This document shows, piece after piece, positions 12,621 to 59,751 of a DNA stretch of 64,000 nt; within the stretch, counting starts at the first letter, position 1, and each line of letters begins with the position of its first letter. The DNA comes from a virus, in IMG/VR virus record IMGVR_UViG_3300009788_000006, positions 1 to 64,000 of that record. One strand, written 5' to 3'. The position numbers and the translations under genes are program-made. The notes beneath the pieces are model-generated. The model ran no database searches, was not told the DNA's origin, and saw only the letters and a program-made list of their open reading frames with translations.

Positions 12621-15600
12621 GTGGCTGTCGTAGAGTTCCCTATCCACGTCCCGATCATCCCCAAGACCGGGAAGTACGATGCGGCGATGGCTCGCGTCAG
12701 GGGGCAGTCCAAGAAGACAGAGTCGTCTCTCCGTTCCCTCAAGGGTGTAGCTGGCACCTTATTCGCTGGGTTTACGGTTGCTGCTGTAATTAGCCAGCTG
12801 GGCTTGGCTTCTGCCGCATTTGCGGACTTTGAATTCCGCATGGCCGGGGTCCGAGCTGTTACAAGAGCTCTGCCGGAAGATATGCAGAAGCTCGAGCAGC
12901 AATCGCGAGAGCTCGGACGATCAACGATTTTCACTGCCACGCAGGTTGCGGAAGCCCAGGAGAATCTTGCTAGAGCGGGGTTCGACGTTGCGGAGAATCT
13001 TGCGTCTCTGCCCGCGGTTCTCGATCTTGCGACCTCGAGCGAATTAGGCATGGCGCGGGCAGCTGATATCTCAGCTGGCGCTCTGCGGGGGTTCCAGCTT
13101 GAGGCGTCGCAGATGGGAGACGTCATCGATGTCATGGCGGTCGCTGCCGCCGACAGCAATCAGCGAATCGAAGATATGGGCGAAGCTCTGAAGTTTGCGG
13201 CGCCTGCTGCTCAAGGGCTTGGTATTTCTTTTCGAGACACCACGGCCGCTCTTGAAGTGCTCGCCGACAACATGCTTCGCGGAACGCTCGGTGGAACCGG
13301 TCTGCGGATGTCTTTGCTTTCATTGATTGATCCTACAGGTAAGGCCGCGGGGGTTCTTGACGAGCTTGGTGTATCCGCTGAAGAATTCACAGACACGTTA
13401 AAAGAGGACGGACTGATCGAGGCTCTGAGCCTGTTGAGCAGCGAGACAACAGGGGTCAAGGAGGCTATCCAGATCGCTGGAGCTCGTGGCGGTACTGCGC
13501 TGCAAATCCTGCTGACCAATCTCGATCGCCTTGCCGAGAAGCGCGCTGGCCTCGAAGGTATTACCGGCGCCTCTCGCGAGATGGCCGAGATCAAGATGGA
13601 CACTGCGACGGGCAGTTTCAAAGAGCTTGAGTCGGCGATTGAATCAGCTCGAATTGAGCTTGGCGCCACTATGGCGCCAGCGCTTCGAGAAACTTCTGTT
13701 GAGCTCAAAGCAATAGCGAGAGTCACGGAAGAATGGATCGTTGCCAATCGCGACATCCTCAGAGACCTGATCCAGGTCACTGGATGGACGGTAAAGCTTG
13801 CGGCAGCGTTGGTGTCGGTGCCGATCAAGATCTTTGCTGATGTTCTTGAGCTTGCCGGAGCGATCGGCGAAAGAATTTCCAACCTCGGCGCGGCCGGCGC
13901 TGACATCAGTGGATTGACACAAGGCGCTGAAGAGTTGGCGGCCGCTTATCGCGAGACGGTAAAGGCGATCAAAAGTCAGGACGAGGCGATCATTCAGTCG
14001 AGGGCGGGGGAGCTCTCGGCACAGATTCGCGCGCTGGCGGAGGAATGGGAGACCATTTCGCAAAACATTAGGATCTATGAAGATGACCTCGACGATCTGC
14101 GTAGCACTGAAGGTGCTACGGCCGAGCAGATCGAAGAAAGCGTTACTGCTTTGCGCGCCCAGGCTGTCGCCCTGCGGTTGAATGAACGGGAGTCCGCGGA
14201 GCTCGACAAAATGCTAGCGCTGCTGTTCGAGAGCCTGAACGATCTTGGGGCGGCCGGTAAAGAGATGGGCAAGGGTATTGAAGATGGGGCCGATGCTCCA
14301 GCTATGAGCATCGACGCCTTGCGGAGCCGCATTATTGCACTGCGTCAAGCGATCATCGATTTCGGCTCCACTGAAGTTCAGACCGAGCTGATTGGAGATG
14401 CCGCGCTGCCGTTCGACCCGCGCAAGATGGTCTTCGCTATGAATGCCGCGTTCGATGATCTTGAAATCGATCAAGATGTCTTTTTGCCAACACAGGCGAC
14501 GATGGATCAGCTCGGGGCGCAACTTGAGCAGATGTACCGGAAATCGGGCGAGGAATTGGCGCCAATTTTCCAGCGAGCGGTGGCTGGGCTGGCGCCGATC
14601 CTTGGCGATCTTTTCGGCGGAGACACCGGCGGGCTGGTTGCTGGCATCGAATCGATATTTGGAACCGGTGGCGCTCTTGATGAGCTTCGCATTGCTCGCC
14701 AAGCATTGACCGACATTGAGGCGGCAGGCGTGCCGACTCAAGAGGAATTGGCCCAAGCGCTCGACCGTGTGGATGTTGCTAGCAAGCGTACCGCGGCTGC
14801 CTTTGCTTCCTTGGTCAGTTCATTGGCCAGTTCGTTGCAAGGCTCCACTGGCCAGCAAACCACCGGGGTTCTCGGAGGTCAAAGCGAGGGCACCTTCTCG
14901 GCAGAGGGCGCCGACATCGGCCAAGCGATCGGCGGACTTTTCGGTCCGTGGTGGGGAGTTTTCGGGCAGGTGGTCGGGGGCATCATCGGCGATTTTATCA
15001 AGAAAGGTGCCGACGACGCGGCTGCCGAGCTGCGGTTGATTGACGGCGAGCTCGACGCCAACGTGTTGAATGTTGAAGGCGGGCTCATCGATAGCTTCGG
15101 GCCTTTCGTCGATGCCTTTGCCGACGCGATCAACCAAACCTTGGACATGATCGGAGCGACGCTGGAAACCCTGCCAGCCAATTTTAACATCGAGATTCGA
15201 AGTGGGCAGTGGATCGCGGTGTGGGGTCGAATGTTCGACGCTACGGAAGAAGGCATCCAGGACGCGCTGTCCTTCGCGGTGATTCAACTTTTGACGCAAG
15301 GCGATGTCACCGGTATCGAGCCAGAGGTGAGGCAGGCGTTGACCAGCTTTGTCGGCAACACGCTCGAAGGATTTCAGGAGACGCTTGCTCTTGCCTTGCG
15401 CCTAGTCGACGATCGGCTCGGCCCGGAGGCGGTCCAGATCCGCGACTCTCTCATAGGGATTTTCGCCGACATTCAGGCCGGGTTGAGCGCCGGGATTAGC
15501 GTCGCGGGCGTCACCGAAGGCATCGACGTTTCCGGCGCCTTCGCCGCTTTAGGCCGAACCCGAGACGAGCTCCTCGGCATTGTGCAATCAGAGGAAGAGA

Positions 15601-17600
15601 TCGCCGGTATCAGAATCGACGCGTTCAACGCTCAAATCAGGGTCCAGATGGCACAGCTCGAGGTGATGCTGGCCGAGACTCTTGTTCGCGAGGCTAGCGC
15701 TCAGCAGGTGACAGTCTTTTCGCGCACACAGCTCGATGCGGTAGAGACAGGGGTCCTCCTGATCGACACCCTGTCCGGAGTCACGACGGAAATGGGCACT
15801 ATGGCGGGCGTTGCTCAGACCACACTTGAAGTGATGGAGGCGGCGACCTCTGGGGCAGTCGAGGCGATCCAGGCGGCCCTAGCAGACCTCGAAGGGCTCT
15901 TGATTTCTGACGCCGAGCGGGCGCAGGGTGTCAGGCGCGCCGGGCGCGGGCCGTCCGGGCCATCACCGGACGCTATCCGTGCGGCTCAAAGAGAGCTGGA
16001 GCTGCTTGCGGCGCGAGCAGCGGGGAATGACCAACTGCTAGAGGATCTCCGGGAGCAGTTCGCGATCCAGGATCAGATTCGGAATATTACTGAAGTGCTC
16101 GGCGCCGAGGCTGGCGAATTGGCCCGCGCGCTCATTGAGACCGCGGCGGCCATGGCCGAGGTCCGCGCCGAAACTGAATTGAGGGAGGAGCGTCAGCGGA
16201 CACTCGCCGAGACTACTGCCGAGCTCGCGGAAAGGATGTCCGATCTTGCGGGGTCATTCGACCAGCAGTTCTCGGCTCTTGGCCCATTCGAACAGGCCAC
16301 TGACATTCTGGGCCAGGCCCAGCAGAACATCATTGATTTGGGGCTGAACGTCGGCCAGCTCCAGCTTGAGGCCGCGCTTTTTGGCGGCAGCACTGACGAT
16401 TTGACAGCGGGCCTGGCTGCTCTTGCGCAAGCCCAGGATCAATACAACGACCTGCTTGAGGAGGCTGATGTCTTCCTGCGCAGAGCTGCGACCACGAGCC
16501 TTCTAGATCTCGGCATCTTTCTCGCCGAGGGCATCGGCGACGCCGAGAGGCTTGCCGAGCTTCAGGCCCAGCAGAGCCGGATGGAGCTCCAACTCAAGCG
16601 GCTCGAATTCGAGCTGCTGGTGGAGCAGCTCCGGATCTTCGGTCTGCTCGACGACGAGCTCCAGGGCCTTGTGGATGACATCAATTCGATGTTCGATACC
16701 GCCTTCGAGCTCGGTGACGAGTTCGGCAACCTTGGCAATGAAATCAACAACGCGGCCGGGGCCTTTTCATCCGCCGCGTCGATCATCCTCACCGGCGCCG
16801 ATCTCTGGGCGCAGCAGCTCGCGCAAGGCCAGGCGCTTCTTGATCGTATCCAGCAGGGTCTGTTAGCGCAGCAATCGCCGTTCGCGCGCATCGTGGCCGA
16901 GATGCAAGCGCTCCGCGACGAGGCGATGGAGATCACGGCCGCGGTCTTCATGACCTTGGGGACCAATCTCGCGGACGTGCTCGCGGATATCGATCTGCTC
17001 GAGCAAATGGAGCTCGACGCCGAATTCCAGCGTTTGACGGGTTCGTTGCAGGACTTCTTCCGATCCTTGACTGAGGGGCCGCTCTCTGGTCTCTCACAGC
17101 GTGACCAGGCTGCGGCGGCACAAGCCAGGGTCGAAGAGCTGCTAAGGCTGGCCGCGGGCGGCGAGGGCATCACCCAGCTCCAGCAAGAGGAGGCCATCGC
17201 CGTGCTTGCGGCTGAAGGGCAGAACCTGCTGGCGCTGGCCGGCGGGGTGCTCGGCGCCGGCGGCATCGGCGCGCTAACTCAGCAACTCATCGAGGCCATC
17301 AGCGGCATCCTCGGCGACGGCTTCCCGTTCGGTGGTGGCGGTGGCCCTCTTGGTCCCGGACCCCCGGGAATCCCAGGGCTTCCGGGGGGACCGCTCGGCG
17401 GCGGTGCTCCAGGGGGCGGGCCGCGTGGTGGTGGTGGGCCACTTAGCCCTGGTTCCCCGTTCAGCAGTGACGTGGCGCTCAATATCGCGTCAGCGGCCGG
17501 CGCCCAGAGATCTACGACGAATAGCCTGCTGAGGTCGATCGAGACTGAGCTGATCGAGCTCAACGGCGGGGTGGTCCAGCCGCCGCAGATTGCCCCTTGA
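12621..17600 (+). CDS. tail tape measure protein (TP901-type core)
   Basis: 1659 aa helical; TIFTATQVAEAQENLARAGF, LPAVLDLA, MGEALKFAAP, GTLGGTGLR motifs. Confidence 0.95.
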   Translation: MAVVEFPIHVPIIPKTGKYDAAMARVRGQSKKTESSLRSLKGVAGTLFAGFTVAAVISQLGLASAAFADFEFRMAGVRAVTRALPEDMQKLEQQSRELGRSTIFTATQVAEAQENLARAGFDVAENLASLPAVLDLATSSELGMARAADISAGALRGFQLEASQMGDVIDVMAVAAADSNQRIEDMGEALKFAAPAAQGLGISFRDTTAALEVLADNMLRGTLGGTGLRMSLLSLIDPTGKAAGVLDELGVSAEEFTDTLKEDGLIEALSLLSSETTGVKEAIQIAGARGGTALQILLTNLDRLAEKRAGLEGITGASREMAEIKMDTATGSFKELESAIESARIELGATMAPALRETSVELKAIARVTEEWIVANRDILRDLIQVTGWTVKLAAALVSVPIKIFADVLELAGAIGERISNLGAAGADISGLTQGAEELAAAYRETVKAIKSQDEAIIQSRAGELSAQIRALAEEWETISQNIRIYEDDLDDLRSTEGATAEQIEESVTALRAQAVALRLNERESAELDKMLALLFESLNDLGAAGKEMGKGIEDGADAPAMSIDALRSRIIALRQAIIDFGSTEVQTELIGDAALPFDPRKMVFAMNAAFDDLEIDQDVFLPTQATMDQLGAQLEQMYRKSGEELAPIFQRAVAGLAPILGDLFGGDTGGLVAGIESIFGTGGALDELRIARQALTDIEAAGVPTQEELAQALDRVDVASKRTAAAFASLVSSLASSLQGSTGQQTTGVLGGQSEGTFSAEGADIGQAIGGLFGPWWGVFGQVVGGIIGDFIKKGADDAAAELRLIDGELDANVLNVEGGLIDSFGPFVDAFADAINQTLDMIGATLETLPANFNIEIRSGQWIAVWGRMFDATEEGIQDALSFAVIQLLTQGDVTGIEPEVRQALTSFVGNTLEGFQETLALALRLVDDRLGPEAVQIRDSLIGIFADIQAGLSAGISVAGVTEGIDVSGAFAALGRTRDELLGIVQSEEEIAGIRIDAFNAQIRVQMAQLEVMLAETLVREASAQQVTVFSRTQLDAVETGVLLIDTLSGVTTEMGTMAGVAQTTLEVMEAATSGAVEAIQAALADLEGLLISDAERAQGVRRAGRGPSGPSPDAIRAAQRELELLAARAAGNDQLLEDLREQFAIQDQIRNITEVLGAEAGELARALIETAAAMAEVRAETELREERQRTLAETTAELAERMSDLAGSFDQQFSALGPFEQATDILGQAQQNIIDLGLNVGQLQLEAALFGGSTDDLTAGLAALAQAQDQYNDLLEEADVFLRRAATTSLLDLGIFLAEGIGDAERLAELQAQQSRMELQLKRLEFELLVEQLRIFGLLDDELQGLVDDINSMFDTAFELGDEFGNLGNEINNAAGAFSSAASIILTGADLWAQQLAQGQALLDRIQQGLLAQQSPFARIVAEMQALRDEAMEITAAVFMTLGTNLADVLADIDLLEQMELDAEFQRLTGSLQDFFRSLTEGPLSGLSQRDQAAAAQARVEELLRLAAGGEGITQLQQEEAIAVLAAEGQNLLALAGGVLGAGGIGALTQQLIEAISGILGDGFPFGGGGGPLGPGPPGIPGLPGGPLGGGAPGGGPRGGGGPLSPGSPFSSDVALNIASAAGAQRSTTNSLLRSIETELIELNGGVVQPPQIAP

Positions 17601-17856: not shown

Positions 17857-18059
17857 GATTCGCTCTCCGTTTCTTCCCGTCGCCGGACTCTTGGCGGGTG
17901 GCCTTGTTGATATTCGATGTAGAGGGAGGCTTCGGCGGGGTCTTCTCCTGGAAGCAGCTTGGCTTCGACCTCCGCGCCGAGCCGCTCTATTTCTGTAGCG
18001 CACCATTCATGAAAAAGGTCCATGATGTACGCGCCGGCGGTTGCTTCAGGGGTTTGCAT
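17853..18059 (-). CDS. hypothetical protein
   Basis: TGATG coupling to upstream gene, ATGA coupling to downstream gene. Confidence 0.5.
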   Translation of the reverse strand: MQTPEATAGAYIMDLFHEWCATEIERLGAEVEAKLLPGEDPAEASLYIEYQQGHPPRVRRREETESES

Positions 18060-20209
18060 CAGGATTCTTCGTCGATTGCGATCCGGTAGGCCACGCGATA
18101 CTCATCGCCCGCCACCTTGGCGAACATATCGCGGCCAGTCTCAGACGGGCTCAACCGGCCGTGGATGACCGCCAGCTTCTGTCCAACGATATCGTTCGTT
18201 TTCGAGCCGACCACCACCACTTCAGCGCGACGGGCAGCAAGAGCAAGGACGCGGGCGGCCTCTTGCAACGTCAGCCAGACCGTGAAGCTCAGCTGGCGCC
18301 GCGGGTTCCGCCCCGTTCCTGGCTGGACATCTACGTGGCCCATATCTCGCCCCATCGGGCCGCGGGATCCAGAGACACCCTCGAAGAGGCGCGCCGAGCG
18401 CACGGCGATGAAGCCGTCGGCGGTGGCCGGGTCCCATACCCGGATCTTGAGCTCGTTGACATCGGCGGCGGTGTCATAAGGCACCACCACCTTCTGCCCG
18501 TAGAGCTCCGGCAGAGCCTCGAGCCGGGTCTGGCTGTTGGGGACTTCCTGGTCTGTCAAAAACGTCGAGTCCGTGACTGTGAGGTTGAGCGCCTCGGCGC
18601 CGTGGTCAAGGACTCCGTCTGTGGCATCGGATAGGGTATAAGCGAGACGGATACGTGGGTCGAACTCGTTGGACAGCGGCGCGCCGCTGCATAGCGTTTG
18701 CGCCTCGGCCGTGGTGAGGATGCCGCCGACTACGACGACAGGCCCCATGATGTCTACCCGCGCCTCGTTGAAGTTCGGGCTCTGCGCTCCTAGTAGCAGC
18801 TTGGCGACGGCACTTGCGGCAAATGCCGACAACCCTGTTGCTGTAGCCTCCAGGGTGGTACCGGAGTAGAGTTTTAGCTCGCTATTGCGCTCGTCGATTG
18901 TGATCAGGATCGGGCCGTGCCAGGACCCATCAGCGAAAGTAGAGGTCGAGTTCGCTGTTTTTTGCGTAGATCCGCGTGTTGTGGAGATCTGAAGCTTCCC
19001 TGTTGAGAGTATGGTCAGTGCTATGTCGCGAGTGGCGAACACCGGACCCCAAAGCGCCAACATAGCGCTCTGGGGTGTGGGCGGGAATCGGACGCCACCA
19101 AAGACCATCGAGCAATTTTCCAGGATGTCGGCGGTAGCCGCGGTTACGGCATCTGCGTTTGACCCCTCACCGCCGAAGCTGAGCGCCGTTCGGCGTGCCA
19201 TCGGCCCGAAGACGGGCTCTTCCCACCTTAGCGGGGCGAACGGGTTTCTCCGCTCTACCCAGGCGTTCGGTGCCGTACCGGCGTGATTCCCCGCTGCGTC
19301 AGTCAACGTGGTGGTGCCGGAATCGGCAGCCAGCATTTGCCAGCTCATTTGCAGCCCGTCGAACGGGTGGGCGTCGTGCATATCGTCGATGATGGCGTCG
19401 AGCTCGGCCGCCGTCAACTCGGCGGTCACGAAGAATTGCGGGCCGACTTCCAACGCGGTGTAGGTCGGCGACGTTGCGTTATCGTTTCCGATAGTGATCG
19501 TCTCGGTCGATGTCGAGACGTGCGCCGGGATCGTAGCCGAACCCTCGGACGCGAAGTTGCCGCCAGCGACCCGCACGTACAGATTGCCCGTCGTCGAGCC
19601 GTCACAGGTGATGGCCACAGCGAAGATTTGGCCATGGTCGACGCGGGTGGTGCCGGTAATCGTGGTTGCGGCCGCTCCGTTGTAGCGGTGAAAATTCCCC
19701 GTAACCAAGCCGGTGGCGGTGGCGATGCCGATGTACCAGTCCACCGTCGTATTCGCGAATCCGTCGGTGGCGCCAGAGCCGAACCAGGCCAGGAGTGGAA
19801 TCGCCGAGAGCTTAATCTGGGGACGATAGCGGAAGATGCCGAGGTAGGAAAATGCTGCCGAGGTCGTCAAGTCCGCTGAGCTGACGATATCCGTCGACGA
19901 GCCGTCGAGAAAAACCACATTAAGTTCGGCCGGCGCCCCCGCGTCGCAAGTCAGGACCGTCTCACGGGCAGCATTGGCGAAGTCAACCACCGCGCCCCGG
20001 GCGTTGCGGGCGGCTGAGCTCGTGTTCTTTCTCAGGGCTTGGGTGTTCGCCGCGGCCGCGTCGTTTGTCCGCCAGCCGGCGCCGACTAGGTTGTCAAGCT
20101 CAGTGGCCTCGAAGGTTGCGAGCTCGTCCACCGCTTCCTCGGCGGAGTTCTTATGCCAGGTGCCGCCGGTGTCGTCGGGGTGGGGGCGGTAGAGGAGCTG
20201 CCAGGTCAT
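18059..20209 (-). CDS. tail protein with two LamG/ConA-like domains, Dit-like termini
   Basis: GGAGG RBS at ATG 20209; AVAITCDGSTTGNLYV, ITIGND, DGSWH...LKLY, LLLGA, LTTAEAQTL LamG-type motifs. Confidence 0.7.
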   Translation of the reverse strand: MTWQLLYRPHPDDTGGTWHKNSAEEAVDELATFEATELDNLVGAGWRTNDAAAANTQALRKNTSSAARNARGAVVDFANAARETVLTCDAGAPAELNVVFLDGSSTDIVSSADLTTSAAFSYLGIFRYRPQIKLSAIPLLAWFGSGATDGFANTTVDWYIGIATATGLVTGNFHRYNGAAATTITGTTRVDHGQIFAVAITCDGSTTGNLYVRVAGGNFASEGSATIPAHVSTSTETITIGNDNATSPTYTALEVGPQFFVTAELTAAELDAIIDDMHDAHPFDGLQMSWQMLAADSGTTTLTDAAGNHAGTAPNAWVERRNPFAPLRWEEPVFGPMARRTALSFGGEGSNADAVTAATADILENCSMVFGGVRFPPTPQSAMLALWGPVFATRDIALTILSTGKLQISTTRGSTQKTANSTSTFADGSWHGPILITIDERNSELKLYSGTTLEATATGLSAFAASAVAKLLLGAQSPNFNEARVDIMGPVVVVGGILTTAEAQTLCSGAPLSNEFDPRIRLAYTLSDATDGVLDHGAEALNLTVTDSTFLTDQEVPNSQTRLEALPELYGQKVVVPYDTAADVNELKIRVWDPATADGFIAVRSARLFEGVSGSRGPMGRDMGHVDVQPGTGRNPRRQLSFTVWLTLQEAARVLALAARRAEVVVVGSKTNDIVGQKLAVIHGRLSPSETGRDMFAKVAGDEYRVAYRIAIDEES

Positions 20210-20334
20210 GAGCTCGCCTCCGACTGCACCAACTGAAGTGCGACTATGTGCGCCGCAACAAGCCAGAGCGAGGGCGCTATACACGCCATGATCACGATGC
20301 CGAGCAGTCGGTCGTCGAGGTCGTCATCTCTCAT
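20206..20334 (-). CDS. small membrane peptide (42 aa)
   Basis: MRDDDLDDRLLGIVIMACIAPSLWLVAAHIVAL; ATGA overlaps on both sides; absent from ORF track. Confidence 0.5.
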   Translation of the reverse strand: MRDDDLDDRLLGIVIMACIAPSLWLVAAHIVALQLVQSEASS

Positions 20335-26483: not shown

Positions 26484-26945
26484 TCATTCTCCAGCCCCTT
26501 CGGCCCGCGCTTCTTTTGGCCCTTTTTCGTCGACGGGCTCGATCCTGTTGGGCGAGTTGTCGATACAGATGGCGCGGGAAGTCTCGATGCATCGATCGCA
26601 GATGCAAACAGGGTCAGCCATGACAAGAAAAGTAGCCTGGCTCCGTTGGCGGTGACAGAATGAGCAATTATAGAGAGGCTTCTTGATCATCTGGTTATGG
26701 GCGTACGCTGCCCGGCGTAGCACGGCCTCGGCCTTGTAGTTCGGCAACCCGTCGTCGTCGAGTTCCTCGCGAGGATAGACGGCACAGAAGCAACTCCCGT
26801 CCCTGCTCCTTATCGCAGTGCGCCACCACTTGCCGTCCCAAAGCTCCCGCTCGACTCTCCACGGGCCGAGGCCGATGCCCGGGTATTTATCCGGGGCAGC
26901 CTGCGGCGGCAGGTCTTCTTTCGTAATCTCAGGCGGCTTGCTCAT
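26484..26945 (-). CDS. protein with ClpX C4-type zinc finger
   Basis: CSFCHRQRSQ...LV...VCICDRCI. Confidence 0.75.
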   Translation of the reverse strand: MSKPPEITKEDLPPQAAPDKYPGIGLGPWRVERELWDGKWWRTAIRSRDGSCFCAVYPREELDDDGLPNYKAEAVLRRAAYAHNQMIKKPLYNCSFCHRQRSQATFLVMADPVCICDRCIETSRAICIDNSPNRIEPVDEKGPKEARAEGAGE

Positions 26946-27450: not shown

Positions 27451-28016
27451 TTCCCCATAAGGGACTCGTCAATCCCGGGGTCTGTTACGTCGATCCCGGC
27501 GAGGCTCGCGTCTTGCGCAATGCATGGCGGCGTCTTGAGCTCTTCGAGAAGACTGGGACCCTGCGGGATGCCGGGCGCCATTCCAGGATGATCCAGCCAG
27601 CGCAGCAACGTCGCACCGGGATTCGTCCCGACGATGATTTTACAGCCGAACTTGCCGCCTCCGATGCCGATCTTGGTGATCAGCGGACGAAGAGTCAGGC
27701 GGGAGACGAAATACTCCCGAAGCGCTATCCTCGCCGCCGCCCAAATCGAAACGCCGGAAGCGGCAGCATATCGGGGGTCAGACAGAAACCCATGAAGAAT
27801 TGGCCCCATGTAGGTCCAATTGGTCACTACAGCCTTTTCAAATCCGACTCCGGTCTCGTAGTTATCGCGCCAGATCTTGGCTAGAGCACTTCCAAGTTCG
27901 GTATCGGGTTCGTGGTTTGGGGGCGGCTCCACTTCGGTTGTACTGAGGGAACCTAGGTCCACGAACTCGAACGCATCCGCCAATCGATCGAAGCGGATTC
28001 CAATTGTGTCGCTCAT
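27447..28016 (-). CDS. hypothetical protein
   Basis: AAGGAG RBS; 189 aa. Confidence 0.7.
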   Translation of the reverse strand: MSDTIGIRFDRLADAFEFVDLGSLSTTEVEPPPNHEPDTELGSALAKIWRDNYETGVGFEKAVVTNWTYMGPILHGFLSDPRYAAASGVSIWAAARIALREYFVSRLTLRPLITKIGIGGGKFGCKIIVGTNPGATLLRWLDHPGMAPGIPQGPSLLEELKTPPCIAQDASLAGIDVTDPGIDESLMGK

Positions 28017-28039
28017 CGAATATCTCCTTCTAGTCTTGG

Positions 28040-28087
28040 AAAAAAGACGGCCGCCGGAACCCAGGGAGGACCAGTCCGGCGACCGGT
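28040..28087 (-). terminator. hairpin followed by U-run
   Basis: CGCCGGA...TCCGGCG stem then TCTTTTT on minus strand, after the membrane-protein gene. Confidence 0.45.
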
Positions 28088-28096
28088 TTGAGAAGC

Positions 28097-28414
28097 TTAC
28101 TTGTGGCGCGCCGCGGTGGTCATCGGCAACCGGAGCCCGACTCCCTTGCGCTTGTTCCAGATGGCTTTGGCCGCTCCACCGAGGTGCTCAATCGCCTTGT
28201 GTAGCGCGGCAGCGAACGCGCCAAGGAAAAGCGCCAGAGCCGGCGTCACGTTGTCGGCGCCGACCTGGACAAGCATCCAGTTCGCGACCAGCCCGAGCAA
28301 CGGGAGCACGACGGGAACCATCAGCGCTTTTGGGACTTTGCCGACGGCCCAGATCATGATCCAGGCGAGCACGGTGGTCAGACCGGGGATCAGTAACAGA
28401 TTGACCTGTTCCAT
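28097..28414 (-). CDS. three-TM membrane protein (holin-like)
   Basis: GAGG RBS; three hydrophobic segments, basic C-terminus. Confidence 0.7.
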   Translation of the reverse strand: MEQVNLLLIPGLTTVLAWIMIWAVGKVPKALMVPVVLPLLGLVANWMLVQVGADNVTPALALFLGAFAAALHKAIEHLGGAAKAIWNKRKGVGLRLPMTTAARHK

Positions 28415-28429
28415 TTTTTCACCTCAGAA

Positions 28430-29000
28430 GGTTAAAGCGGCTCCGGTCCACCAGCACGCCCCCGACACAACGCCGAGAGCTTCGCGGTCCATCTGAATCC
28501 AGAGCCGTCAACCAGGAGCCGGAGGAGGAACCCGCTACGACCAAGCGAGACACAACCGATGCGGATACTCCGGCCCCTGGTTCAGGGCTCGGCAATTGCA
28601 GGGAGTAGAGCCGCCAGCTGCAAGCCGGGGCGACAGGCGCCAGCCGTCGCACCATCCGACTGAGCCGGGAAGGTCTCCGGCTTGCAGCTCATGGCTCTGG
28701 TCTCGAATCTCTCGCAGCCCCCGAGGGACTTATGCACGGAATCGCCAGCTAACCTTAGACCAGCCGTTACCGATCTACTCTTCGCTGAACACGCCCCTCG
28801 ATTCCCCACCATGCTAACCGGGGCGGCCGGCTTCTCAACCGTGCCGGGGCCTGCCAAAGATTCGAGAATCCGGCTTCTCGAGGACTTCATGACAGCGACC
28901 CCTGGCTCAGCCAGGATTATGCGATCGGCCACGCCGACGTTACTCGCCATTCGTCCGGTCAAGATTGAGCTTTTGCTCCGGGGCCGGTCTCCGGAATTCC
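28430..29000 (-). ncRNA. candidate large structured ncRNA B (~570 nt)
   Basis: no credible ORF; stems 28616-28628/28677-28689 (13 bp perfect), 28510-28524/28568-28582, hairpins 28862-28881, 28901-28915, 28967-28978. Confidence 0.6.
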
Positions 29001-29003
29001 AGA

Positions 29004-29180
29004 CTATCGAAACGCCCCGAGAGGCGTGAAATCCTCCCACCGGTTCCGGTACGGGCTGTTCGGCGGATAGTCGCCGCTGATCTTTCGCGCATAGGCCGAT
29101 CTGCGACCAGGGGCGCTCATCGCGCGCTCCTTGGCGGCCTTCCGTTTTGCTCTTTCCTTCAAACGTTTCTCGCTCTTCAT
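29004..29180 (-). CDS. 58-aa Lys/Arg-rich peptide
   Basis: AAGGGAG RBS; MKSEKRLKERAKRKAAKERAMSAPGRRSAYARK...; absent from ORF track. Confidence 0.65.
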   Translation of the reverse strand: MKSEKRLKERAKRKAAKERAMSAPGRRSAYARKISGDYPPNSPYRNRWEDFTPLGAFR

Positions 29181-29189
29181 GCTGTCTCC

Positions 29190-29940
29190 CTTGGGGATTG
29201 CCGGCCCGTGCTACCGTAGCGGGCCAGCGGTGGGTCGGTTGGGAAGGAGTCACGCCCCTGGTAGCTCGGAGCGGTGAGAAGGCGAGGCCAGGCCCTTGGG
29301 GTCGCGCCTGGAAAACTACCAGGTCTCGGCGGGTCAACGAAACCGCGTGCAAGCCGCAGCAGCGAGGCACCGGATCGATCACTATGGGTAGCTCGCCGAG
29401 GTTGGGCTCGCACACTATCGCCGATGCTTGCGTCGACGATATGCCGGTCGCCCTTTCGCTTGGCGTTGCCGCCAGGCGCGCGCCCAAAGGCCCGCTATTT
29501 AGCTGGCGCTCCAGGAGGCCGCCGCCAACCCTCTCGACCGGAACGGCTGAGAGAGCACATTGCCGACGGCGGTCTGCTGCAACGTCAGAATAGTGACGGG
29601 ATTGCACCGCCCCGCGGTCTCTCACCGCTTGGCCTGGGTTACGACCAGTCCCACGGACACCTCCATCTACGTGCCGCGCGGATAAGGCGCCGTCAGCCCC
29701 GCGCGTACGCCGACCATTGCTCCACCAGGGCGATTTGCCGCTGTCGGTCCTGGTTTCATCGCCTTCACAACGGGCCGCCAGCCTACCGGAGCTTACGCTT
29801 GATCGGTGGTCTCCTCCGGCTCTACCACTCAGCAATGCCAGGCTGTACGGCGACCCTTTCACGCAATGACGCTCCACGCGACCGCCGCTGGCAGGGAGGC
29901 TTTTCCCATGCAATCCGCGGCGGTCGCGTGCAACGTCAGT
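29190..29940 (-). ncRNA. candidate large structured ncRNA A (~750 nt)
   Basis: near-continuous stems; several closed by GNRA loops on the minus strand (GUAA, GAGA, GCAA); 22-bp stem 29867-29888/29917-29938. Confidence 0.7.
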
Positions 29941-30150
29941 CATGCCGCCGCCCAATCGATTGGATTCGTGCGGGCTGGTGTGTAGGCTCCAGTCTAGCGA
30001 CCCCTCGCTCCCACAGGGAACGTCGCAAGCCTCCCAGTCAGCCTCGGGGCTTTCGAAGGTACAAGTCTTGCCGAGGTCCGGCGGTGACCCATCAAGTGCC
30101 GCTATTCCGTCGACGCGAATCACGGCCGCTACGTGTGTCCAGATACTCAC
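29940..30150 (-). pseudogene. N-terminal part of a phage protein (WTHV...PCGSEGSL) running into the structured region
   Basis: first ~65 aa protein-like and coupled by GTGA; the rest of the 522-aa ORF is low-quality R/G/S/P sequence. Confidence 0.45.
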
Positions 30151-30488
30151 GGGTCAACTTCTTCATCTGGTTCTGGGGCAGGCCCGAGAACACTGACTCG
30201 GTCGCCGGGCTTCAGCACGCACTCAGGGCATGGAATCAACGTATCGAATTGGCGATCCGGATCCCGGACGATGAATAAGAAACCGCACTGAGGACACTTC
30301 TTCTTTCTTGTGGGCCGCTGCGGGAATTCGGCGCGCGTCTCCCACCCCAGATCCGCAATCACGAGCCCCCGGACGTAGGCCGAGAACGTCATCTCTCTGA
30401 CCCGGGCCTCTCTCTGTGCATTGCGCAGAATACCGCTCGGCATACTGACGCTGGTCTTGACCGCGGGTCCGTTGGGGTTCGTCGCCAT
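30147..30488 (-). CDS. ribbon-helix-helix regulator with C-terminal zinc ribbon, leaderless
   Basis: KTSVSMP...MTFSAYVRGLV; CPQC...CPEC; TTGACA at 30520-30525. Confidence 0.75.
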   Translation of the reverse strand: MATNPNGPAVKTSVSMPSGILRNAQREARVREMTFSAYVRGLVIADLGWETRAEFPQRPTRKKKCPQCGFLFIVRDPDRQFDTLIPCPECVLKPGDRVSVLGPAPEPDEEVDP

Positions 30489-30577
30489 GCCCTGTATCTT
30501 TTCACACCGCGGGCCGGGGTGTCAAGAACTATTTTCACACCTTCGCCCGTTCTGCCCGTGTGCTACCATCGCCACCC

Positions 30578-31018
30578 ATGGCGGACGATCCCATCCAGAT
30601 AGCACTCCTCGAAGAAGTCAGGAAGCTCATCGAAGCAAAGTTCGCGGCGTCCCAGGCCGCCTCGGAAGCGGCAGTGGAAGCTTCCGAGAACGCTACGACC
30701 GCCGTGGCCGTGATGGGCAAGCAAATCCAAGGCGAGCTCCACGAGCTATCAGACCGGCTTCTGGAGCTTCTCGCGATGATCCGGGAAGACAGGGCACGGG
30801 AGGGAGCGTCAGCTTCGGGTATCGAGGCCATCGCGACTGCCTTCAAAGCCGCCGGCGCCGACCGCGAGAGAATCGGCAAGATCGAAGGCCGCCTCGACGG
30901 CGAGACGCTCCGCTTAGACGGACGCATCGGCAAGCAAGCGATACAGTTGGTAATCATCTGGGGCTTTATCGTCATCTTGGGGCTCAGGGTAGCTGCCGAA
31001 ATCCTGGGAATTCCCTAA
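30578..31018 (+). CDS. coiled-coil protein with C-terminal TM
   Basis: TGC-TACCAT 8 nt before ATG; C-terminal LVIIWGFIVILG. Confidence 0.65.
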   Translation: MADDPIQIALLEEVRKLIEAKFAASQAASEAAVEASENATTAVAVMGKQIQGELHELSDRLLELLAMIREDRAREGASASGIEAIATAFKAAGADRERIGKIEGRLDGETLRLDGRIGKQAIQLVIIWGFIVILGLRVAAEILGIP

Positions 31019-38340: not shown

Positions 38341-38817
38341 AAGCGGATCGAGGTCGGGTAGCAGGGGCGGCCTTTCGGCCGGCCGTCTGCTAACTGAATT
38401 GAGCATCAAGAAGGTCGCGCCGTTCTAAGTACGGGCGGCCATTGTCGCGACAGAAGTCGCCGATCATCGACGGGAGTTTCGAGAATTCCCGCCAGTCTGC
38501 CGGTCTGTTGCCAGGGCGTCGCATCTTCAGTGCGTCCAGCGCACGATAGACTAGGGAATAATCGACCCGGTTGGCCTTGCGCCAAGCCTTGGTGACCATG
38601 TCAGCCCAGTAACTTGGCGCCTTCGTCCGTTTGATGATGGCGGCGAGCGCGTTCCCGGGCATGCCTTTCAGGGCTTGCTCGTCGACCGTGCCGTCCTCGC
38701 CAAGCAGAAGCGCGATACCCTCGGGAGTCATGTTCGTGATGTCGAAAGTCTGCATTGTGCTCTCCAGATTCGCAGGAGCGGTTGATCCCGCCCCTCCTAT
38801 CCGACCTCGATTCGTTC
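38341..38817. repeat. ~30-bp imperfect inverted repeat enclosing one gene
   Basis: 38341-38370 versus reverse complement of 38788-38817; core ATCGAGGTCGG(G/A)TAG(C/G)AGGGGCGG. Confidence 0.85.
38390..38755 (-). CDS. hypothetical protein
   Basis: GGAG RBS; 121 aa. Confidence 0.7.
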   Translation of the reverse strand: MQTFDITNMTPEGIALLLGEDGTVDEQALKGMPGNALAAIIKRTKAPSYWADMVTKAWRKANRVDYSLVYRALDALKMRRPGNRPADWREFSKLPSMIGDFCRDNGRPYLERRDLLDAQFS

Positions 38818-38923
38818 GTGGCCCTTATTCTCGCCTACCAAGACTCGAAGCATGGCTGCCGGCGGTTTCGGGTGAGTTGTCAAAGGGTTCTTTCTCGGTC
38901 GCCTATTAGAACTTGCAAACCCT

Positions 38924-39137
38924 ATGCCAGAATTATGAACACAGCCCCATGAAAGGTTGGTGGGCCTTAAACGTAAGCATGTCACCACTTACGCCGAATG
39001 CCGCCGGGCCAGAGGCCCGGGCCGCTGACCCGGAATGTCCAGAATTCCGTACATTGTATCCACAATTCTGGACACGGGCCGATAAGCGCTTACGGGTCAA
39101 CACTTACGAGCCCTTGATTTGTTCAGAATTCTGGATC
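38924..39137. promoter_or_regulatory. array of four operator-like 18-bp palindromes
   Basis: consensus TGTCCAGAATTCTGGACA; copies at 38924 (13/18), 39036 (16/18), 39057 (16/18), 39120 (15/18). Confidence 0.75.
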
Positions 39138-39337
39138 AGAGGTGAGTCGAGCGCGCGGAGTAGGTTGAGCACGGCCACGGCCGATCCGAGGTTGTCGCCC
39201 TGCTCCCAGGCCCACAGCCTGGTGCGGACGATGTCCAGGTCAACGGCAGCGGCCTTAGAGCTGCGCCCCGTCGCTTGTCGTAGGCTGCGGATGTGGGCGC
39301 CGAGGTCCTTGGGAGTGATGTCGTGGTGTGTTTTCAT
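39104..39337 (-). CDS. XRE/Cro-like HTH regulator
   Basis: LGAHIRSLRQATGRS...AAVDLDI.RT.LWAWEQG. Confidence 0.8.
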   Translation of the reverse strand: MKTHHDITPKDLGAHIRSLRQATGRSSKAAAVDLDIVRTRLWAWEQGDNLGSAVAVLNLLRALDSPLIQNSEQIKGS

Positions 39338-39380
39338 GGTCTCAGGTGATTGCAAACCGCGTGCCGCGGACGAAAGTCCA

Positions 39381-39659
39381 TCATTCATCGCGACCACGGA
39401 AACCGAACACCGAATCGGCGCCGACCAGCTCCTGCGGCGAGCCCAGCCTCGCCTCCAGATATTCGTGAGCACGGCAGAATGTTGCACCCCTCATTGGGCG
39501 GCAGCGACACTGCCTCAGAGTCCAACTCATTTCAAAGCCGCTCGGCGTCCTACCGGTCCTACGCAAGCAATCACGCTCCGCGACCTCGGCCGGACAGAAT
39601 CCCTCTTTCGGGTTATCTACACTGCTACAGGCGGACTCATATGGACCATAGATGCCCAT
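39381..39659 (-). CDS. small Cys-containing protein
   Basis: TGATG coupling; QCRCRP...FCRAH. Confidence 0.5.
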   Translation of the reverse strand: MGIYGPYESACSSVDNPKEGFCPAEVAERDCLRRTGRTPSGFEMSWTLRQCRCRPMRGATFCRAHEYLEARLGSPQELVGADSVFGFRGRDE

Positions 39660-57008: not shown

Positions 57009-57316
57009 GACGCCACCATAAACTGCTGGACGCACCACCCCATGGCGAGGATAAGAAGCGGATACCATATCGAGTGTAGCGTCGCCTTGATGATTGATTC
57101 CCACAGGTCGCTGCCCTCCGGCGTGTCGATGTATTGGTGAGTGAGATACGCGATCACGATGGCCACGCCGATAGCTGCTGGCAGAGCGAGCGCGGGCAGA
57201 CCAAAGGTCGGGACCATGAACCAGCCCCACAGCTTCGACAGAACCCAACCGTTGAAGATGGCCTGAAACGGCGTGATCAGGATAGCAAAAAGGCACCCGG
57301 ATGCCGTCTTATTCAT
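57005..57316 (-). CDS. membrane protein
   Basis: GWVLSKLWGWFMVPTFGLP motif; three TM. Confidence 0.75.
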   Translation of the reverse strand: MNKTASGCLFAILITPFQAIFNGWVLSKLWGWFMVPTFGLPALALPAAIGVAIVIAYLTHQYIDTPEGSDLWESIIKATLHSIWYPLLILAMGWCVQQFMVAS

Positions 57317-57612
57317 GTCGCCCTCCGGAGTATCTCTTCGAGAGTCGCAATCAGCTCCGCGCTGTCGTCCGCGCGCATATTGCCGGCGGTCTCAGGGTCA
57401 ACGAGCGCGGCCAGCCACAAAGGGCTGTCGCCGAGGTTGATTGCGGCCACCAAGGAAATGCCGAGTGCCTGAAGCTCTCCCTCTTCGTAGTTGTCAAAGC
57501 GGTTTTGGCGGAACCCTCGCCGCCCTTGGAGCTCTTCAGCCACCGCAACCGCTGCGCGCTCCGAGGCAGACTTGGCCCCGGCCGGGAACATCTCGTCGTG
57601 AATCCAACTCAT
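57313..57612 (-). CDS. hypothetical protein
   Basis: GGAGG RBS. Confidence 0.6.
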   Translation of the reverse strand: MSWIHDEMFPAGAKSASERAAVAVAEELQGRRGFRQNRFDNYEEGELQALGISLVAAINLGDSPLWLAALVDPETAGNMRADDSAELIATLEEILRRAT

Positions 57613-57643
57613 GTCGTCCTCCGTTTTTGTCGTTCCGTTCTGT

Positions 57644-57752
57644 CGCTCACCACTACCAGAGGCCCCGGCTCGGTGACTCGGCGTGGGTCCTGGCGGGATT
57701 CTGGGGTCTGCGGGGGTCTTGGCAAGGCCGAGGCCCCTGATGGTGGTGAGCG
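57644..57752 (-). repeat. intergenic 26-bp inverted repeat / long RNA stem
   Basis: 57644-57669 vs 57727-57752, 22/26; three of the four differences are G-U pairs on the minus strand. Confidence 0.8.
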
Positions 57753-57762
57753 GGTTGGTGAT

Positions 57763-58047
57763 TTACGCGCCGGCGAAGAATTCCTCGCGGGCCTTCTCCG
57801 TCATGAACTCTGGCCGAGCGAAGTGCTTTGGCTCGTTCTCATCAAGCCACGCCAGCGTCTCCGCTTTGGCGGTGAGCATCGCGCCCACCTTGAACTTTTC
57901 GTCATAGTCGCCGATGTCTTTGCCGAAGATCGCGACGAGCTCGGGGCAATTGCCGCCATTGATCATCGTTTCAATTACCTTCTCGGCCTCTTTGGGCCAG
58001 AGCCCCTTACTGGCCAGTTGCTCGGCAATCCAATCCCTGGTCTTCAT
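57763..58047 (-). CDS. hypothetical protein
   Basis: AAGGA RBS; L...GLW..EA, WLDENEPKHFARPEF motif. Confidence 0.7.
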   Translation of the reverse strand: MKTRDWIAEQLASKGLWPKEAEKVIETMINGGNCPELVAIFGKDIGDYDEKFKVGAMLTAKAETLAWLDENEPKHFARPEFMTEKAREEFFAGA

Positions 58048-58253
58048 TTTGAATTTCCTTTCCCGGTTGAATTGTCGACCACCACCGCCCTCAGCCCTTC
58101 GAGACGCTGGCGGATGTCTATGATCAGCCCCGTGTCGCCGGCCTCGATCGCGGCATCCAACACCGCGAATATCGGGGCGGCGGTTCTTCGGGCGGCGGCT
58201 TGGGCCTGGAGCAGCAGCCACGCAGCGTCGGATTCGGTCTGTCGGTCTTTCAT
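58044..58253 (-). CDS. hypothetical protein
   Basis: GAGG RBS, ATGA coupling. Confidence 0.55.
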   Translation of the reverse strand: MKDRQTESDAAWLLLQAQAAARRTAAPIFAVLDAAIEAGDTGLIIDIRQRLEGLRAVVVDNSTGKGNSK

Positions 58254-58405
58254 AACTGCGCCTCGTCTTCGTCGTCGAGATCGGTCAGGAGGTCCCACGG
58301 CTCTAAATGGTACCCGCACTCTGGCGGGGGATCGGTGTCGAGGATTTTGTCCGCGAGCATCGCGGCGTAGTCGAGGGCGTCTTGTTCTGTGGCGGTGAGG
58401 ATCAT
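58250..58405 (-). CDS. small acidic protein
   Basis: AAGGGAG RBS; first gene after TTGACA/TATACT promoter. Confidence 0.6.
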   Translation of the reverse strand: MILTATEQDALDYAAMLADKILDTDPPPECGYHLEPWDLLTDLDDEDEAQL

Positions 58406-58882: not shown

Positions 58883-59151
58883 AGAGCATCCGAGACATCC
58901 TCCGGCCGGCCGCCTTGGCCGAACTCAACCGCGACGGTCGCCGGCATCGTCTCGCCCGCATCTGGCGCGAGTACCACGGCCTCACCAACGAGGAGGCCGC
59001 AGCGATCTGCGGCGTGGAGCCCTACAGCTTCAGCCGCTTTGGGACCCACCGACAGCGACCGGAAGCGGGGCGGCTGGTGGCCAAGGGGATCGGGCTCGAC
59101 AGCAGCACCCGGCCGTGGAAGGCGGCGGTCGCTGGCACCATCCTAGCGTAG
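58879..59151 (+). CDS. XRE-like HTH protein
   Basis: WREYHGLTNEEAAAICGVEPYSFSRF...RP. Confidence 0.7.
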   Translation: MKSIRDILRPAALAELNRDGRRHRLARIWREYHGLTNEEAAAICGVEPYSFSRFGTHRQRPEAGRLVAKGIGLDSSTRPWKAAVAGTILA

Positions 59152-59207
59152 CTCAGACGGCAGAGCGCTCGGAGAGGTCGCGGGTTCGAGCCCCGCCGGA
59201 CCTACCA
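59142..59207 (+). other. tRNA-like element lacking anticodon loop and 5' acceptor strand
   Basis: TAGCTCAGACGGCAGAGC D-arm, GCGGG-TTCGAGC-CCCGC T-arm, ACCA end. Confidence 0.65.
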
Positions 59208-59634: not shown

Positions 59635-59640
59635 GGGATC

Positions 59641-59670: not shown

Positions 59671-59751
59671 CCGGAGCGGCGACGATGATTACAGAGGCAG
59701 CCCGGAATCCAAGCGGGCGGATTTCATCCTACCGCGCCGAGGTAGTGCGGG

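Follow-up and report, generated by a model that had tools for sequence, protein, structure and literature searches.

A broken gene, a stop-free frame and swappable folded modules at a phage locus first annotated as two large RNAs

The first 64 kb of the IMG/VR virus record IMGVR_UViG_3300009788_000006 (an 82,021-bp genome with direct terminal repeats; its first 64,000 nucleotides (nt) are hereafter the window) include a minus-strand stretch of ~1.7 kb, at 28415–30146, that separates a regulator-like gene from a gene for a small membrane protein. A first-pass annotation had read this stretch as an undescribed ribonucleoprotein (RNP) locus, with two large RNAs on either side of a gene for a basic peptide. 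Our analysis leaves the RNP interpretation largely unsupported and indicates that the locus is odd in ways other than those proposed: it contains a broken gene, a stop-free frame without a protein signature and swappable folded modules. Our preferred reading, to which we assign a probability of about 0.4, is that the stretch is a mosaic, cis-acting structured RNA spacer or leader within one leftward operon, carried in a translated frame, and not a two-RNA RNP. A tightly packed phage genome seldom retains 1.5 kb that yields no protein. The annotation is here corrected to a broken gene in place of two giant RNAs.

A truncated member of a widespread protein family

By homology, the first 195 nt of the supposedly non-coding stretch are the 5′ half of a broken conserved gene. 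When the 522-amino-acid (aa) translation of the open reading frame (ORF) that begins here was compared with shorter proteins, 13 proteins of 119–169 aa were found to be 39–60% identical to it while covering only 11–20% of its length. These belong to a family of ~135 aa whose members begin with MSIWTH and carry PCGSEGS and GDLR motifs. All 13 match only the interval from 30150 to ~29960 (tblastn E 1e-11 to 1e-20), and a profile hidden Markov model (HMM) built from them matches the window at positions 2–67 of 135 (E 1.4e-23) with no full-length match, identifying the window copy as a truncated member. The missing C-terminal half (HMM positions 68–135) was absent from all six frames of the 82-kb genome with filters off and E up to 100; against the family profile, every other six-frame segment of the genome stayed at E 6 or worse, and tblastn with the 13 proteins gave no C-terminal match below E 0.02.

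What remains of the gene is well preserved. All residues that are invariant in the N-terminal part of the family are kept in the fragment, and its GTG start overlaps the stop codon of the upstream 113-aa gene. The homology ends abruptly at codon 63–64, 22 nt before the first long hairpin of the locus (H1). Elsewhere the family is found in 13 database clusters and in 62 IMG/VR loci (L084–L145) recovered by alignment, all 62 of which encode the gene (reaching HMM position 113 or beyond in 61). No neighbours or DNA are shared between these 62 loci and the locus studied here. The family matched nothing in Pfam, PHROG, NCBIfam or PADLOC that would name it, the best match among PDB sequences had E 0.15, and the N-terminal fragment had no ESM Atlas match of 0.9 or more; the broken copy has thus brought to light a widespread phage protein family that is still unnamed.

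An open frame that does not look like a protein

Beyond the gene head the same frame runs on for 457 further codons, and this open frame is the least explained fact of the locus. None of 20,000 dinucleotide shuffles of 29955–28415 kept that frame free of stops for 457 codons (their first stop fell at 31 codons on average and no later than 352), and an equally long ORF in any of the six frames arose in 0.05% of shuffles. Over 28415–30146 the ORF frame has two stops, both near the 3′ end, compared with 27 and 23 in the other minus-strand frames. A similar openness is found in the one relative of the locus, L083, a 1415-bp JGI contig (metagenome Ga0114923) that carries a homologue of the membrane protein and was aligned to the window by blastn. 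The 136 codons that precede the membrane gene of L083 are all free of stops, in a frame homologous to that of the window over a conserved C-rich segment (the C element), whereas the other plus frames hold five and two stops over positions 1–421. We estimate from stop frequency that such openness would arise by chance with a probability of ~0.03.

Judged by composition, codon usage and lack of homologues, however, the 457-codon tail is not protein-like. Its codon-position composition gave a chi2 of 15.7 (over 1371 nt), where real-gene controls from the genome gave 57.8 (the membrane protein), 109 (a lipoprotein), 140 (capsid) and 27.6 (a 189-aa gene). G+C at codon positions 1, 2 and 3 was 0.67, 0.61 and 0.65, while five real genes of the genome had 0.42–0.54 at the second position (GC2) and 0.65–0.81 at the third (GC3), and the GC3/GC2 periodicity of the genome was seen in no frame between 30146 and 28415. 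The codon-usage score of the tail (−0.089 per codon) was no better than expected from the absence of stops alone. No homologue of residues 66–522 was found among the 8000 candidates sharing most words with them, and the tail had neither an ESM Atlas match of 0.9 or more nor a Pfam family. The earlier statement that the stretch has no credible coding holds for coding composition, but it missed both the gene fragment (30150–29956) and the 522-codon frame (28582–30150); gene callers are misled in the other direction and list a 522-aa "protein" here.

Three further accounts of the stretch were rejected. Pseudogene relics in other frames are set aside because none of the nine further stop-to-stop ORFs of the stretch has a Pfam family; stop-codon reassignment, because TAA, TAG and TGA all occur among the stops of the closed frames; and the shadow of an opposite-strand gene, because the codon-aligned plus frame contains 16 stops.

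Local folding and RNA-family searches

On the minus strand, both blocks that had been taken for large RNAs fold better than dinucleotide-shuffled controls, the comparison by which the annotation had proposed to refute itself. Block 29190–29940 (block A) reaches −375 kcal/mol (z −6.2, with none of 20 shuffles as good) and block 28430–29000 reaches −286 kcal/mol (z −4.6, none of 100), and their plus strands fold less well (z −3.4 and −2.5, respectively). The description of two densely paired blocks nevertheless stands only in part, since the signal is local and not spread over the blocks. It is carried by three long hairpins (H1, H3 and H2), a 304-nt module (Bb5), the leader of the membrane-protein gene and a segment of 207 nt (B2), with z from −8.3 for H1 to −2.5 for B2 (Table 1). 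Other pieces do not differ from shuffles, namely the peptide ORF (z +0.35), the gene-head segment (the first 207 nt of the stretch; z +0.7) and a 278-nt segment (B1, 29589–29866, z −0.55). This dissection does not bear out a pair of large RNAs of ~750 and ~570 nt: block A consists of two paralogous hairpins (H1 and H2), the unremarkable 278 nt, the moderately folded 207 nt and a C-rich, mostly unpaired element.

Controls from the same genome place these values in context. In 23 windows of 571 nt, z ranged from +1.5 to −3.6 and minimum free energy from −197 to −253, and in 254 minus-strand windows of 300 nt the mean z was −0.24 (standard deviation 1.24). The most extreme 300-nt window was 39001–39300 (z −6.3), and the second was 28501–28800 (z −4.1). 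The stretch is unusual in its length and summed structure, but it is not unique in fold strength, and it provides a clear case of fold statistics alone overstating a finding.

Two other structured regions emerged from the scan. The 39001–39300 window, the most extreme at 300 nt, has z −4.0 over 401 nt; the surrounding 38756–39350 (minus strand) comprises the 3′ end of a Cro/XRE-like 127-aa ORF (39104–39487) and intergenic palindromes around TCCAGAATT...GGAATTCTGGA, and probably serves as an operator or terminator. Within the tape-measure gene (13500–16800), some parts fold well below shuffles on both strands (z −2.1 to −3.8), probably owing to internal repeats, so that z near −3.5 also occurs in coding DNA of this genome.

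Searches for known RNA families were negative, as the annotation had anticipated in stating that neither block could be matched to a named family. Rfam 15 gave five matches over 64 kb, all to tRNA and none within 28000–30600. With E up to 10 the locus returned three matches, all with E above 2 and at most 19 bits (cut-offs 48–90), and models for GOLLD, ROOL, OLE, group I and II introns, ribozymes and tmRNA did not reach their gathering scores. The suggestion that the membrane protein partners an RNA in the manner of OLE finds no footing here, as there was no OLE, GOLLD or ROOL match even at E up to 10.

Conserved elements and exchanged modules

Comparative evidence comes from few sequences. 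The capsid of this phage is only ~32% identical to its nearest IMG/VR relatives, indicating that no close kin has been sequenced, and a blastn search with the locus found nothing in 50,697 phage records. L083 aligns to the window in four places (Table 1), from an arm shared with hairpins H1 and H2 to the terminator behind the membrane gene; within the longest match, L083 307–421 corresponds to the leader (28534–28418).

The C element is the best-conserved piece of the locus (88%, versus 71% for the adjoining gene), and 66 of 71 letters also agree in a second contig, described below. It is the only stretch of the transcript in which C clearly exceeds G (35 C and 20 G in 78 nt, a ratio of 1.75). 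Of the 12 sites at which it differs from L083, we count seven at codon position 1, two at position 2 and three at position 3. Hairpin H3 is likewise retained: its L083 counterpart folds at −54.7 kcal/mol (z −5.5), and its basal stem has 18 of 20 pairs unchanged, the other two being altered at one base each (U-G/C-G and G-C/G-U). The frame in which H3 is read is not the same in the window phage as in L083. Together, the substitution pattern of the C element and the frame difference of H3 indicate conservation at the nucleotide or RNA level and not at the protein level. To this extent the interpretation as RNA is supported: some elements are kept at the nucleotide level, with their pairing, in one relative.

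Hairpins H1 and H2 are paralogues within the locus. Their first 22 nt match at 19 positions. Of the 21 pairs predicted, four (two in the main stem) differ at both bases yet still pair, and two (one in the main stem) differ at a single base. The bodies that follow the two hairpins, B1 and B2, are no more similar than shuffled controls. A tandem pair of homologous ~350-nt RNAs is therefore ruled out; only the hairpins and a short GCAATCCC motif are shared. The first 11 nt of the H1/H2 5′ arm recur exactly at 18274 (minus strand) within a 741-aa gene (18059–20284), with a GC-rich run of partial similarity behind them, probably by chance.

Spaced inverted repeats with arms of at least 22 nt number four in the 64 kb, and two of them are at the locus. 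One of the four lies at 57644–57752, in or beside a 365-aa ORF (57301–58398), with 26-nt arms that are 85% complementary and 57 nt apart. Exact patterns derived from the H1/H2 arm, the C element and the H3 arm had no match in viral contigs, the H3-arm pattern had none in 185,579 species genomes, and no further copies of the hairpin palindromes were found elsewhere in the phage genome; the pattern scans rule out a widespread repeat element. A retroelement or transposon is ruled out by the absence from the phage genome of matches to RVT_1, Y1_Tnp, the TnpB zinc-ribbon domain and integrase. The motif AATCC was considered as a junction signal and set aside, its four copies in the locus amounting to only 2.3 times the genome rate.

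Between the conserved elements, whole segments differ. At the place where the window has 494 nt comprising the peptide ORF and Bb5, L083 has 15 nt and lacks both. In place of B2 (29293–29499), L083 has ~80 nt with a tRNA-like element (63–121) that scores 33.1 bits on the Rfam tRNA model (cut-off 29), over model positions 5–66 only. Six nt replace 11 in its anticodon loop region, and by our reading its acceptor stem pairs at three positions plus one wobble. It does not form a full tRNA cloverleaf, ARAGORN finds no gene in it, and with E up to 10 the tRNA model is the only Rfam match on L083.

A search for sequencing runs listed a single run, probably of the source DNA, and none of RNA. The probable source run, X1, supplied one contig (depth 13.9) that covers the whole locus and another of 284 nt (depth 3.1) in which 28699 and 29194 are linked by the 15-nt filler also seen in L083, a contig from which it differs elsewhere. 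The form without the 494-nt cassette, as read from these assemblies, is thus present in at least two contigs, and its occurrence at low depth in run X1 suggests presence/absence variation of the cassette within one habitat. Low-depth contigs of a related phage in the same run (3.1–4.4, compared with 13.9), among them the one that lacks the cassette, cover 28076–28138, 28676–28699 and 29194–29264. Alignment of the 189-aa protein family led to no related loci in viral contigs or genome contigs, and the contigs that carry its homologues P0004 and P0005 (1311 and 1276 bp) are not long enough to extend to the locus.

A second tRNA-like element lies in the window itself, at 59145–59204 (plus strand): 60 nt with a D arm, a T arm and an anticodon arm cut to a 3-bp stem, scoring 30.4 bits on the Rfam tRNA model (cut-off 29) and not called by ARAGORN. 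It is followed by a gene-poor ~550 nt (59205–59750) of unremarkable fold (z −1.6), and the stretch at 59140–59750 shares with L083 63–121 only the tRNA-like part.

The peptide ORF and the 494-nt cassette

A short basic ORF with a good ribosome-binding site had been reported between the two blocks, and it is present: 58 codons with 17 Lys and Arg versus six Asp and Glu, preceded by the motif AAGGGAGA, a close copy of which (one base longer before the ATG) precedes the gene start at 58421. The ORF overlaps the 522-codon open frame, it has no coding signature of its own (chi2 8.0, p 0.24), and the peptide matched no family in Pfam, PHROG, NCBIfam or PADLOC. Directly downstream lies Bb5, whose fold is the strongest and most strand-specific of the locus (its plus strand reaches −105 kcal/mol, z −0.9) and which has no Rfam match. 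The ORF and Bb5 are present or absent together, as one 494-nt indel, in L083 and the run X1 contig; this joint behaviour is the only hint of a peptide-RNA link. The same comparison speaks against the peptide as a conserved partner, since it is absent from both cassette-less contigs, which keep the conserved RNA pieces and the membrane gene. For an arginine-rich-motif pairing such as that of lambda N with boxB, what is observed is the composition of the peptide and this absence from relatives. A scan found no promoter or terminator belonging to the cassette itself.

Neighbouring genes and features of the locus

The proposed phage origin agrees with the terminal repeats of the record and with its matches to an HK97-type capsid, a tape-measure gene and a DnaB helicase; window G+C is ~62%. 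The locus lies at the upstream end of a minus-strand gene block extending from ~18 kb to 30.5 kb. All of its parts are on the minus strand, as had been stated. From the promoter-like hexamer to the membrane gene, a scan detected no terminator-like site other than a weak one within that gene. PADLOC defence-system families matched none of the eight neighbouring proteins. The tRNA cluster of the phage, at 60.5 kb, does not adjoin the locus. Four genes downstream, at 26484–26945 (minus strand), a 153-aa protein with a ClpX-type C4 zinc finger (Pfam E 2.6e-8) is possibly a phage adaptor or inhibitor of host ClpX.

Upstream, the annotation had placed a TTGACA promoter and a ribbon-helix-helix (RHH)/zinc-ribbon regulator. 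The hexamer is there, but no promoter was listed for it by a scan, because its −10 hexamer is poor. The 113-aa ORF is likewise there, with weak zinc-ribbon support (PHROG Lar-like E 0.006; zinc-ribbon models E 0.008–0.07), but the RHH assignment has no HMM behind it at E up to 0.1 (Pfam) or 0.05 (NCBIfam). No loci related through the 113-aa protein were found in viral contigs.

Downstream, the three-transmembrane protein is confirmed as a 105-aa ORF with three hydrophobic stretches. It has one homologue (P0002, 72% identical, on L083) and no match in Pfam, PHROG, NCBIfam, PADLOC or any holin family, and no further loci related through it were found in viral contigs. The endolysin families Amidase_2, Phage_lysozyme and SLT had no match in the genome; other endolysin families were not searched. 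The hairpin and U-run reported behind this gene are present and are kept in L083.

Table 1. Features of the locus in the window and alignments to its relative L083 (z, fold energy relative to shuffled sequences)
Feature	Position	Strand	Fold or identity	Basis or remark
TTGACA hexamer, promoter-like −35	30522–30527	minus		upstream of 113-aa gene; poor −10; read from the sequence, putative
113-aa gene, CxxC...CxxC zinc-ribbon-like part	30147–30488	minus		ORF list; N-terminus RHH-like by eye only
Gene head: N-terminal half (~63–65 codons) of widespread ~120–140-aa phage protein	29956–30150	minus		tblastn and family HMM
522-codon open frame: gene head and 457 further stop-free codons	28582–30150	minus		ORF list, shuffles
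Hairpin H1, 22-bp stem with one G·G mismatch and small apical stem	29867–29939	minus	−53.5 kcal/mol, z −8.3, 0/200 shuffles	inverted repeat I4
Body B1, between H1 and H2	29589–29866	minus	z −0.55 minus, −1.0 plus	unremarkable fold
Hairpin H2	29500–29588	minus	−46.8 kcal/mol, z −3.4	paralogue of H1
Body B2	29293–29499	minus	z −2.5 minus (0/60), −1.0 plus	moderate fold
C element, 45% C, 25% G	29194–29292	minus	z −0.7; 88% to L083 131–231	mostly unpaired, one conserved terminal hairpin
58-aa Lys/Arg-rich ORF	29004–29180	minus		ORF list; AAGGGAGA motif 6 nt upstream of ATG
Module Bb5, 304 nt	28700–29003	minus	−145 kcal/mol, z −5.2, 0/60	strongest and most strand-specific fold of the locus
Hairpin H3, 22-bp basal stem	28607–28699	minus	−59.4 kcal/mol, z −5.1	both arms conserved, top diverged
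Leader of membrane-protein gene	28415–28606	minus	z −2.8 minus, −1.5 plus	partial copy of H3 3′ arm and ribosome-binding site
105-aa protein, three hydrophobic stretches, basic tail	28097–28414	minus		hydropathy; holin-like by architecture only
Intrinsic-terminator-like hairpin and U-run	28040–28085	minus	−24.1 kcal/mol, z −3.2	kept in L083
L083 307–793	28534–28041		71%	leader, membrane gene, terminator
L083 247–340	28699–28607		74%	H3
L083 131–231	29292–29194		88%	C-rich element just upstream of peptide ORF
L083 29–51	3′ arm of H1 and H2		19–20/23 over arm	hairpin arm

A proposed structured RNA spacer in a carrier frame

The reading that we prefer starts from what is observed here: the anatomy of the locus, the broken gene, the improbable open frame, the fold statistics and the conservation in one relative. 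The stretch would begin with the 5′ half of the broken gene, start-coupled to the upstream regulator-like gene, and ribosomes starting at the gene head may read on through the 457 stop-free codons without protein-level constraint. Within this carrier frame, RNA modules (H1/H2, the C element, the 494-nt cassette, H3 and the leader of the three-transmembrane protein) would be gained, lost and swapped between relatives. The long hairpins H1–H3 may serve as RNA-level processing or stability elements; stems of ~22 bp are of the size cut by RNase III, which is why processing is proposed for them. Translation and tight folding would together shield the long non-protein RNA, above all its C-rich, rut-like element, from Rho-dependent termination, and this shielding could let transcription reach the membrane-protein gene. 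The C element (88%) and H3 (74%) are conserved at least as well as the neighbouring gene (71%), and G-U pairs in conserved stems, compensatory changes between H1 and H2 and the minus-strand fold advantage are signs of a constraint on RNA. The broken gene and the 522-codon open frame also make a free, ornate RNP RNA less likely.

Several points weigh against this reading. Transcription as one unit, translation of the frame and the involvement of RNase III and Rho are all inferred. Covariation draws on two sequences per element (the 1415 bp of L083, plus the 284-nt contig), and the "compensatory" pairs at the top of H3, where the alignment is poor, cannot be relied on. Identity of 88% beside 71% can stem from the mosaic recombination of phages instead of selection. 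Ribosomes translating the frame would be impeded by stems of −47 to −59 kcal/mol, and the frame ends 168 nt before the membrane gene, making any coupling to it indirect. The C/G ratio of 1.75 in the C element is modest, the top windows of the genome reaching 2.2–3, and the shorter regulatory region at 39001–39300 folds as strongly, so strong folding is not unique to the locus.

The main competitor is evolutionary debris, in which illegitimate recombination, or the insertion of palindromic or hairpin-ended mobile DNA, disrupted a gene, and what follows is non-functional filler with relics of mobile elements and tRNA genes, its folding incidental and its conserved patches the result of recent recombination. 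The truncated gene without a 3′ half anywhere in the genome is what such a history would leave, as are the whole-segment replacement and 494-nt indel that distinguish the relatives, the similar short sequences that we read at both edges of the indel, and the degenerate tRNA-like piece of L083 (33.1 bits, no ARAGORN gene). H1 and H2 repeat a single palindrome in the same orientation, an arrangement known from the ends of hairpin-ended transposons, and B1, the gene head and the peptide ORF fold no better than shuffles. Filler, however, should hold stops, and none of the 20,000 shuffles matches the frame, which is also open at the homologous place in L083; the gene head retains every family-invariant residue, and neither the C element nor the H3 stem is less conserved than the adjoining gene. 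Selection on the gene-strand RNA is suggested by the G-U pairs and by the 40 kcal/mol that separate the two strands of Bb5. Patterns derived from H1, H3 and the C element are absent from viral contigs, and that of H3 from 185,579 species genomes, so these are not common repeats, and the phage has no match to a Y1 transposase, TnpB, integrase or reverse transcriptase. We consider debris unlikely on balance, though a serious contender. The improbable open frame, the start coupled to the upstream gene and the intact N-terminal domain would also suit a real 522-aa protein, in which the family domain is followed by a basic, Gly/Arg/Ala/Ser-rich and probably disordered tail of 457 residues, with RNA folding as a by-product. 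In its favour, G at codon position 1 is 0.40, as in real genes, the codon score is the best of the six frames, and a gene caller has listed the frame (the Atlas holds the sequence). Yet GC2 (0.61) and GC3 (0.65) lack the periodicity typical of the genome, the codon-score advantage is explained by the lack of stops alone, and the tail has no homologue among the 8000 candidates scored and no Atlas or Pfam match. Substitutions relative to L083 fall mostly at codon position 1, H3 lies in another frame there, and the L083 frame contains the tRNA-like sequence; perfect 22-bp hairpins are moreover unusual inside genes, and of the four spaced inverted repeats in 64 kb with arms of at least 22 nt, two are here. 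A translated product of this kind seems improbable to us.

Two further explanations concern the RNA itself. What could be retained of the original proposal is that the 58-aa Lys/Arg peptide binds a co-encoded RNA (Bb5, perhaps block A) as an RNP, perhaps with the membrane protein. The strong ribosome-binding motif with its close copy at the 58421 gene start, the very basic composition (17 Lys and Arg in 58 residues) and the position of the ORF directly upstream of the best-folded, most strand-specific module, with which it is gained and lost, all favour such a pair. We find it very doubtful, however: the only relatives have the C element, H3 and the membrane gene but neither the peptide nor Bb5, so that these two do not form a conserved core; the peptide lacks a homologue, a family and a coding signature (chi2 8.0, p 0.24); its ORF and the 522-codon open frame overlap; block A does not amount to a single large RNA; and OLE, GOLLD and ROOL do not match. 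A self-splicing intron or similar insert that interrupts the family gene, with the protein restored by splicing, would account for the abrupt end of homology at codon 63–64, 22 nt before H1, and for the structured nature of the insert, and group I introns are frequent in phage genes. This is extremely improbable, since there is no 3′ exon (HMM positions 68–135 are absent from the six frames of the 82-kb genome at E up to 100, and tblastn found nothing) and no group I or II match at E up to 10; with neither a 3′ exon nor an intron model match, an intron is excluded as far as sequence can tell.

If the spacer reading is true, the locus shows how exchangeable modules can be assembled into a long RNA for regulation or processing, whose transcription the phage sustains by means of a meaningless open frame. 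If, on the other hand, the folded 304-nt module and the small basic ORF prove to be a unit, they would constitute a new peptide-RNA cassette. With a single short relative, a new RNA class cannot be claimed, and there is only a slim chance that the locus holds something undescribed, either Bb5 (perhaps with H3 and the leader) as a class of structured phage RNA moving as a cassette with the 58-aa peptide as its partner, or the stop-free carrier frame, seeded by a broken gene, as a means of carrying a long non-protein RNA through an operon with ribosomes kept on it to evade Rho.

Comparison with known systems

The large RNAs GOLLD and ROOL are the nearest point of reference for the original proposal. 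In a recent preprint they are described as phage- or prophage-borne and often near tRNA islands, GOLLD having a conserved 3′ region, a variable 5′ region and sometimes tRNAs in a linker (bioRxiv 10.1101/2024.12.08.627333). Like them, the present locus is phage-borne, hundreds of nucleotides long and strongly folded, and its variable part (with a tRNA-like piece in L083) followed by a conserved 3′ element resembles the arrangement of GOLLD. Unlike them, it has no match to their Rfam models at E up to 10 in the window or in L083, it lies away from the phage tRNA cluster and inside an ORF seeded by a gene fragment, and its conserved element is mostly unpaired, with no covariation-supported fold from the two sequences.

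The other systems to which we compared the locus (RNase III sites, Rho-controlled leaders, palindromic elements, IS200/IS605 ends and phage morons) share one feature each with it, and none fits the whole. RNase III processing hairpins lie between genes of phage early transcripts, for example in T7, and the ~22-bp stems with single mismatches between functional units of one transcript are similar here; unlike the T7 sites, these hairpins, which are predicted from sequence, fall within an open frame and separate non-protein segments. Rho termination controlled by translation or structure is found in leaders such as those of the tna operon, mgtA and ribB, which the locus resembles in having a C-rich, G-poor, weakly paired conserved element upstream of a putatively regulated gene and an upstream frame whose translation would cover that element. 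Its frame, however, comprises 522 codons and is not a short leader peptide, the Rho dependence is putative, and the C element lies ~780 nt from the membrane gene in the window and ~190 nt from it in L083.

Palindromic sequences that insert into genes offer a different parallel. Rickettsia palindromic elements are translated within genes, and derivatives of IS200/IS605 are hairpin-ended. The palindromic inserts at the locus keep the reading frame open like the former, and H1 and H2 are same-orientation copies of one palindrome like the ends of the latter; the gene break and two module junctions also follow an AATCC motif, although this is only 2.3-fold enriched. The locus differs from a tolerated in-frame palindromic insert in that the C-terminal half of the broken gene is gone, and from IS200/IS605 in that the phage has no Y1_Tnp or TnpB match and no further copies in its genome. 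Finally, the cassette invites comparison with phage morons, from which it differs in being mostly non-coding folded RNA and in that no promoter or terminator of its own was found; as with morons, a 494-nt unit (a ribosome-binding site, the 58-aa ORF and a 304-nt folded RNA) is carried here, and two related contigs that are without it have exactly the same junction in its place.

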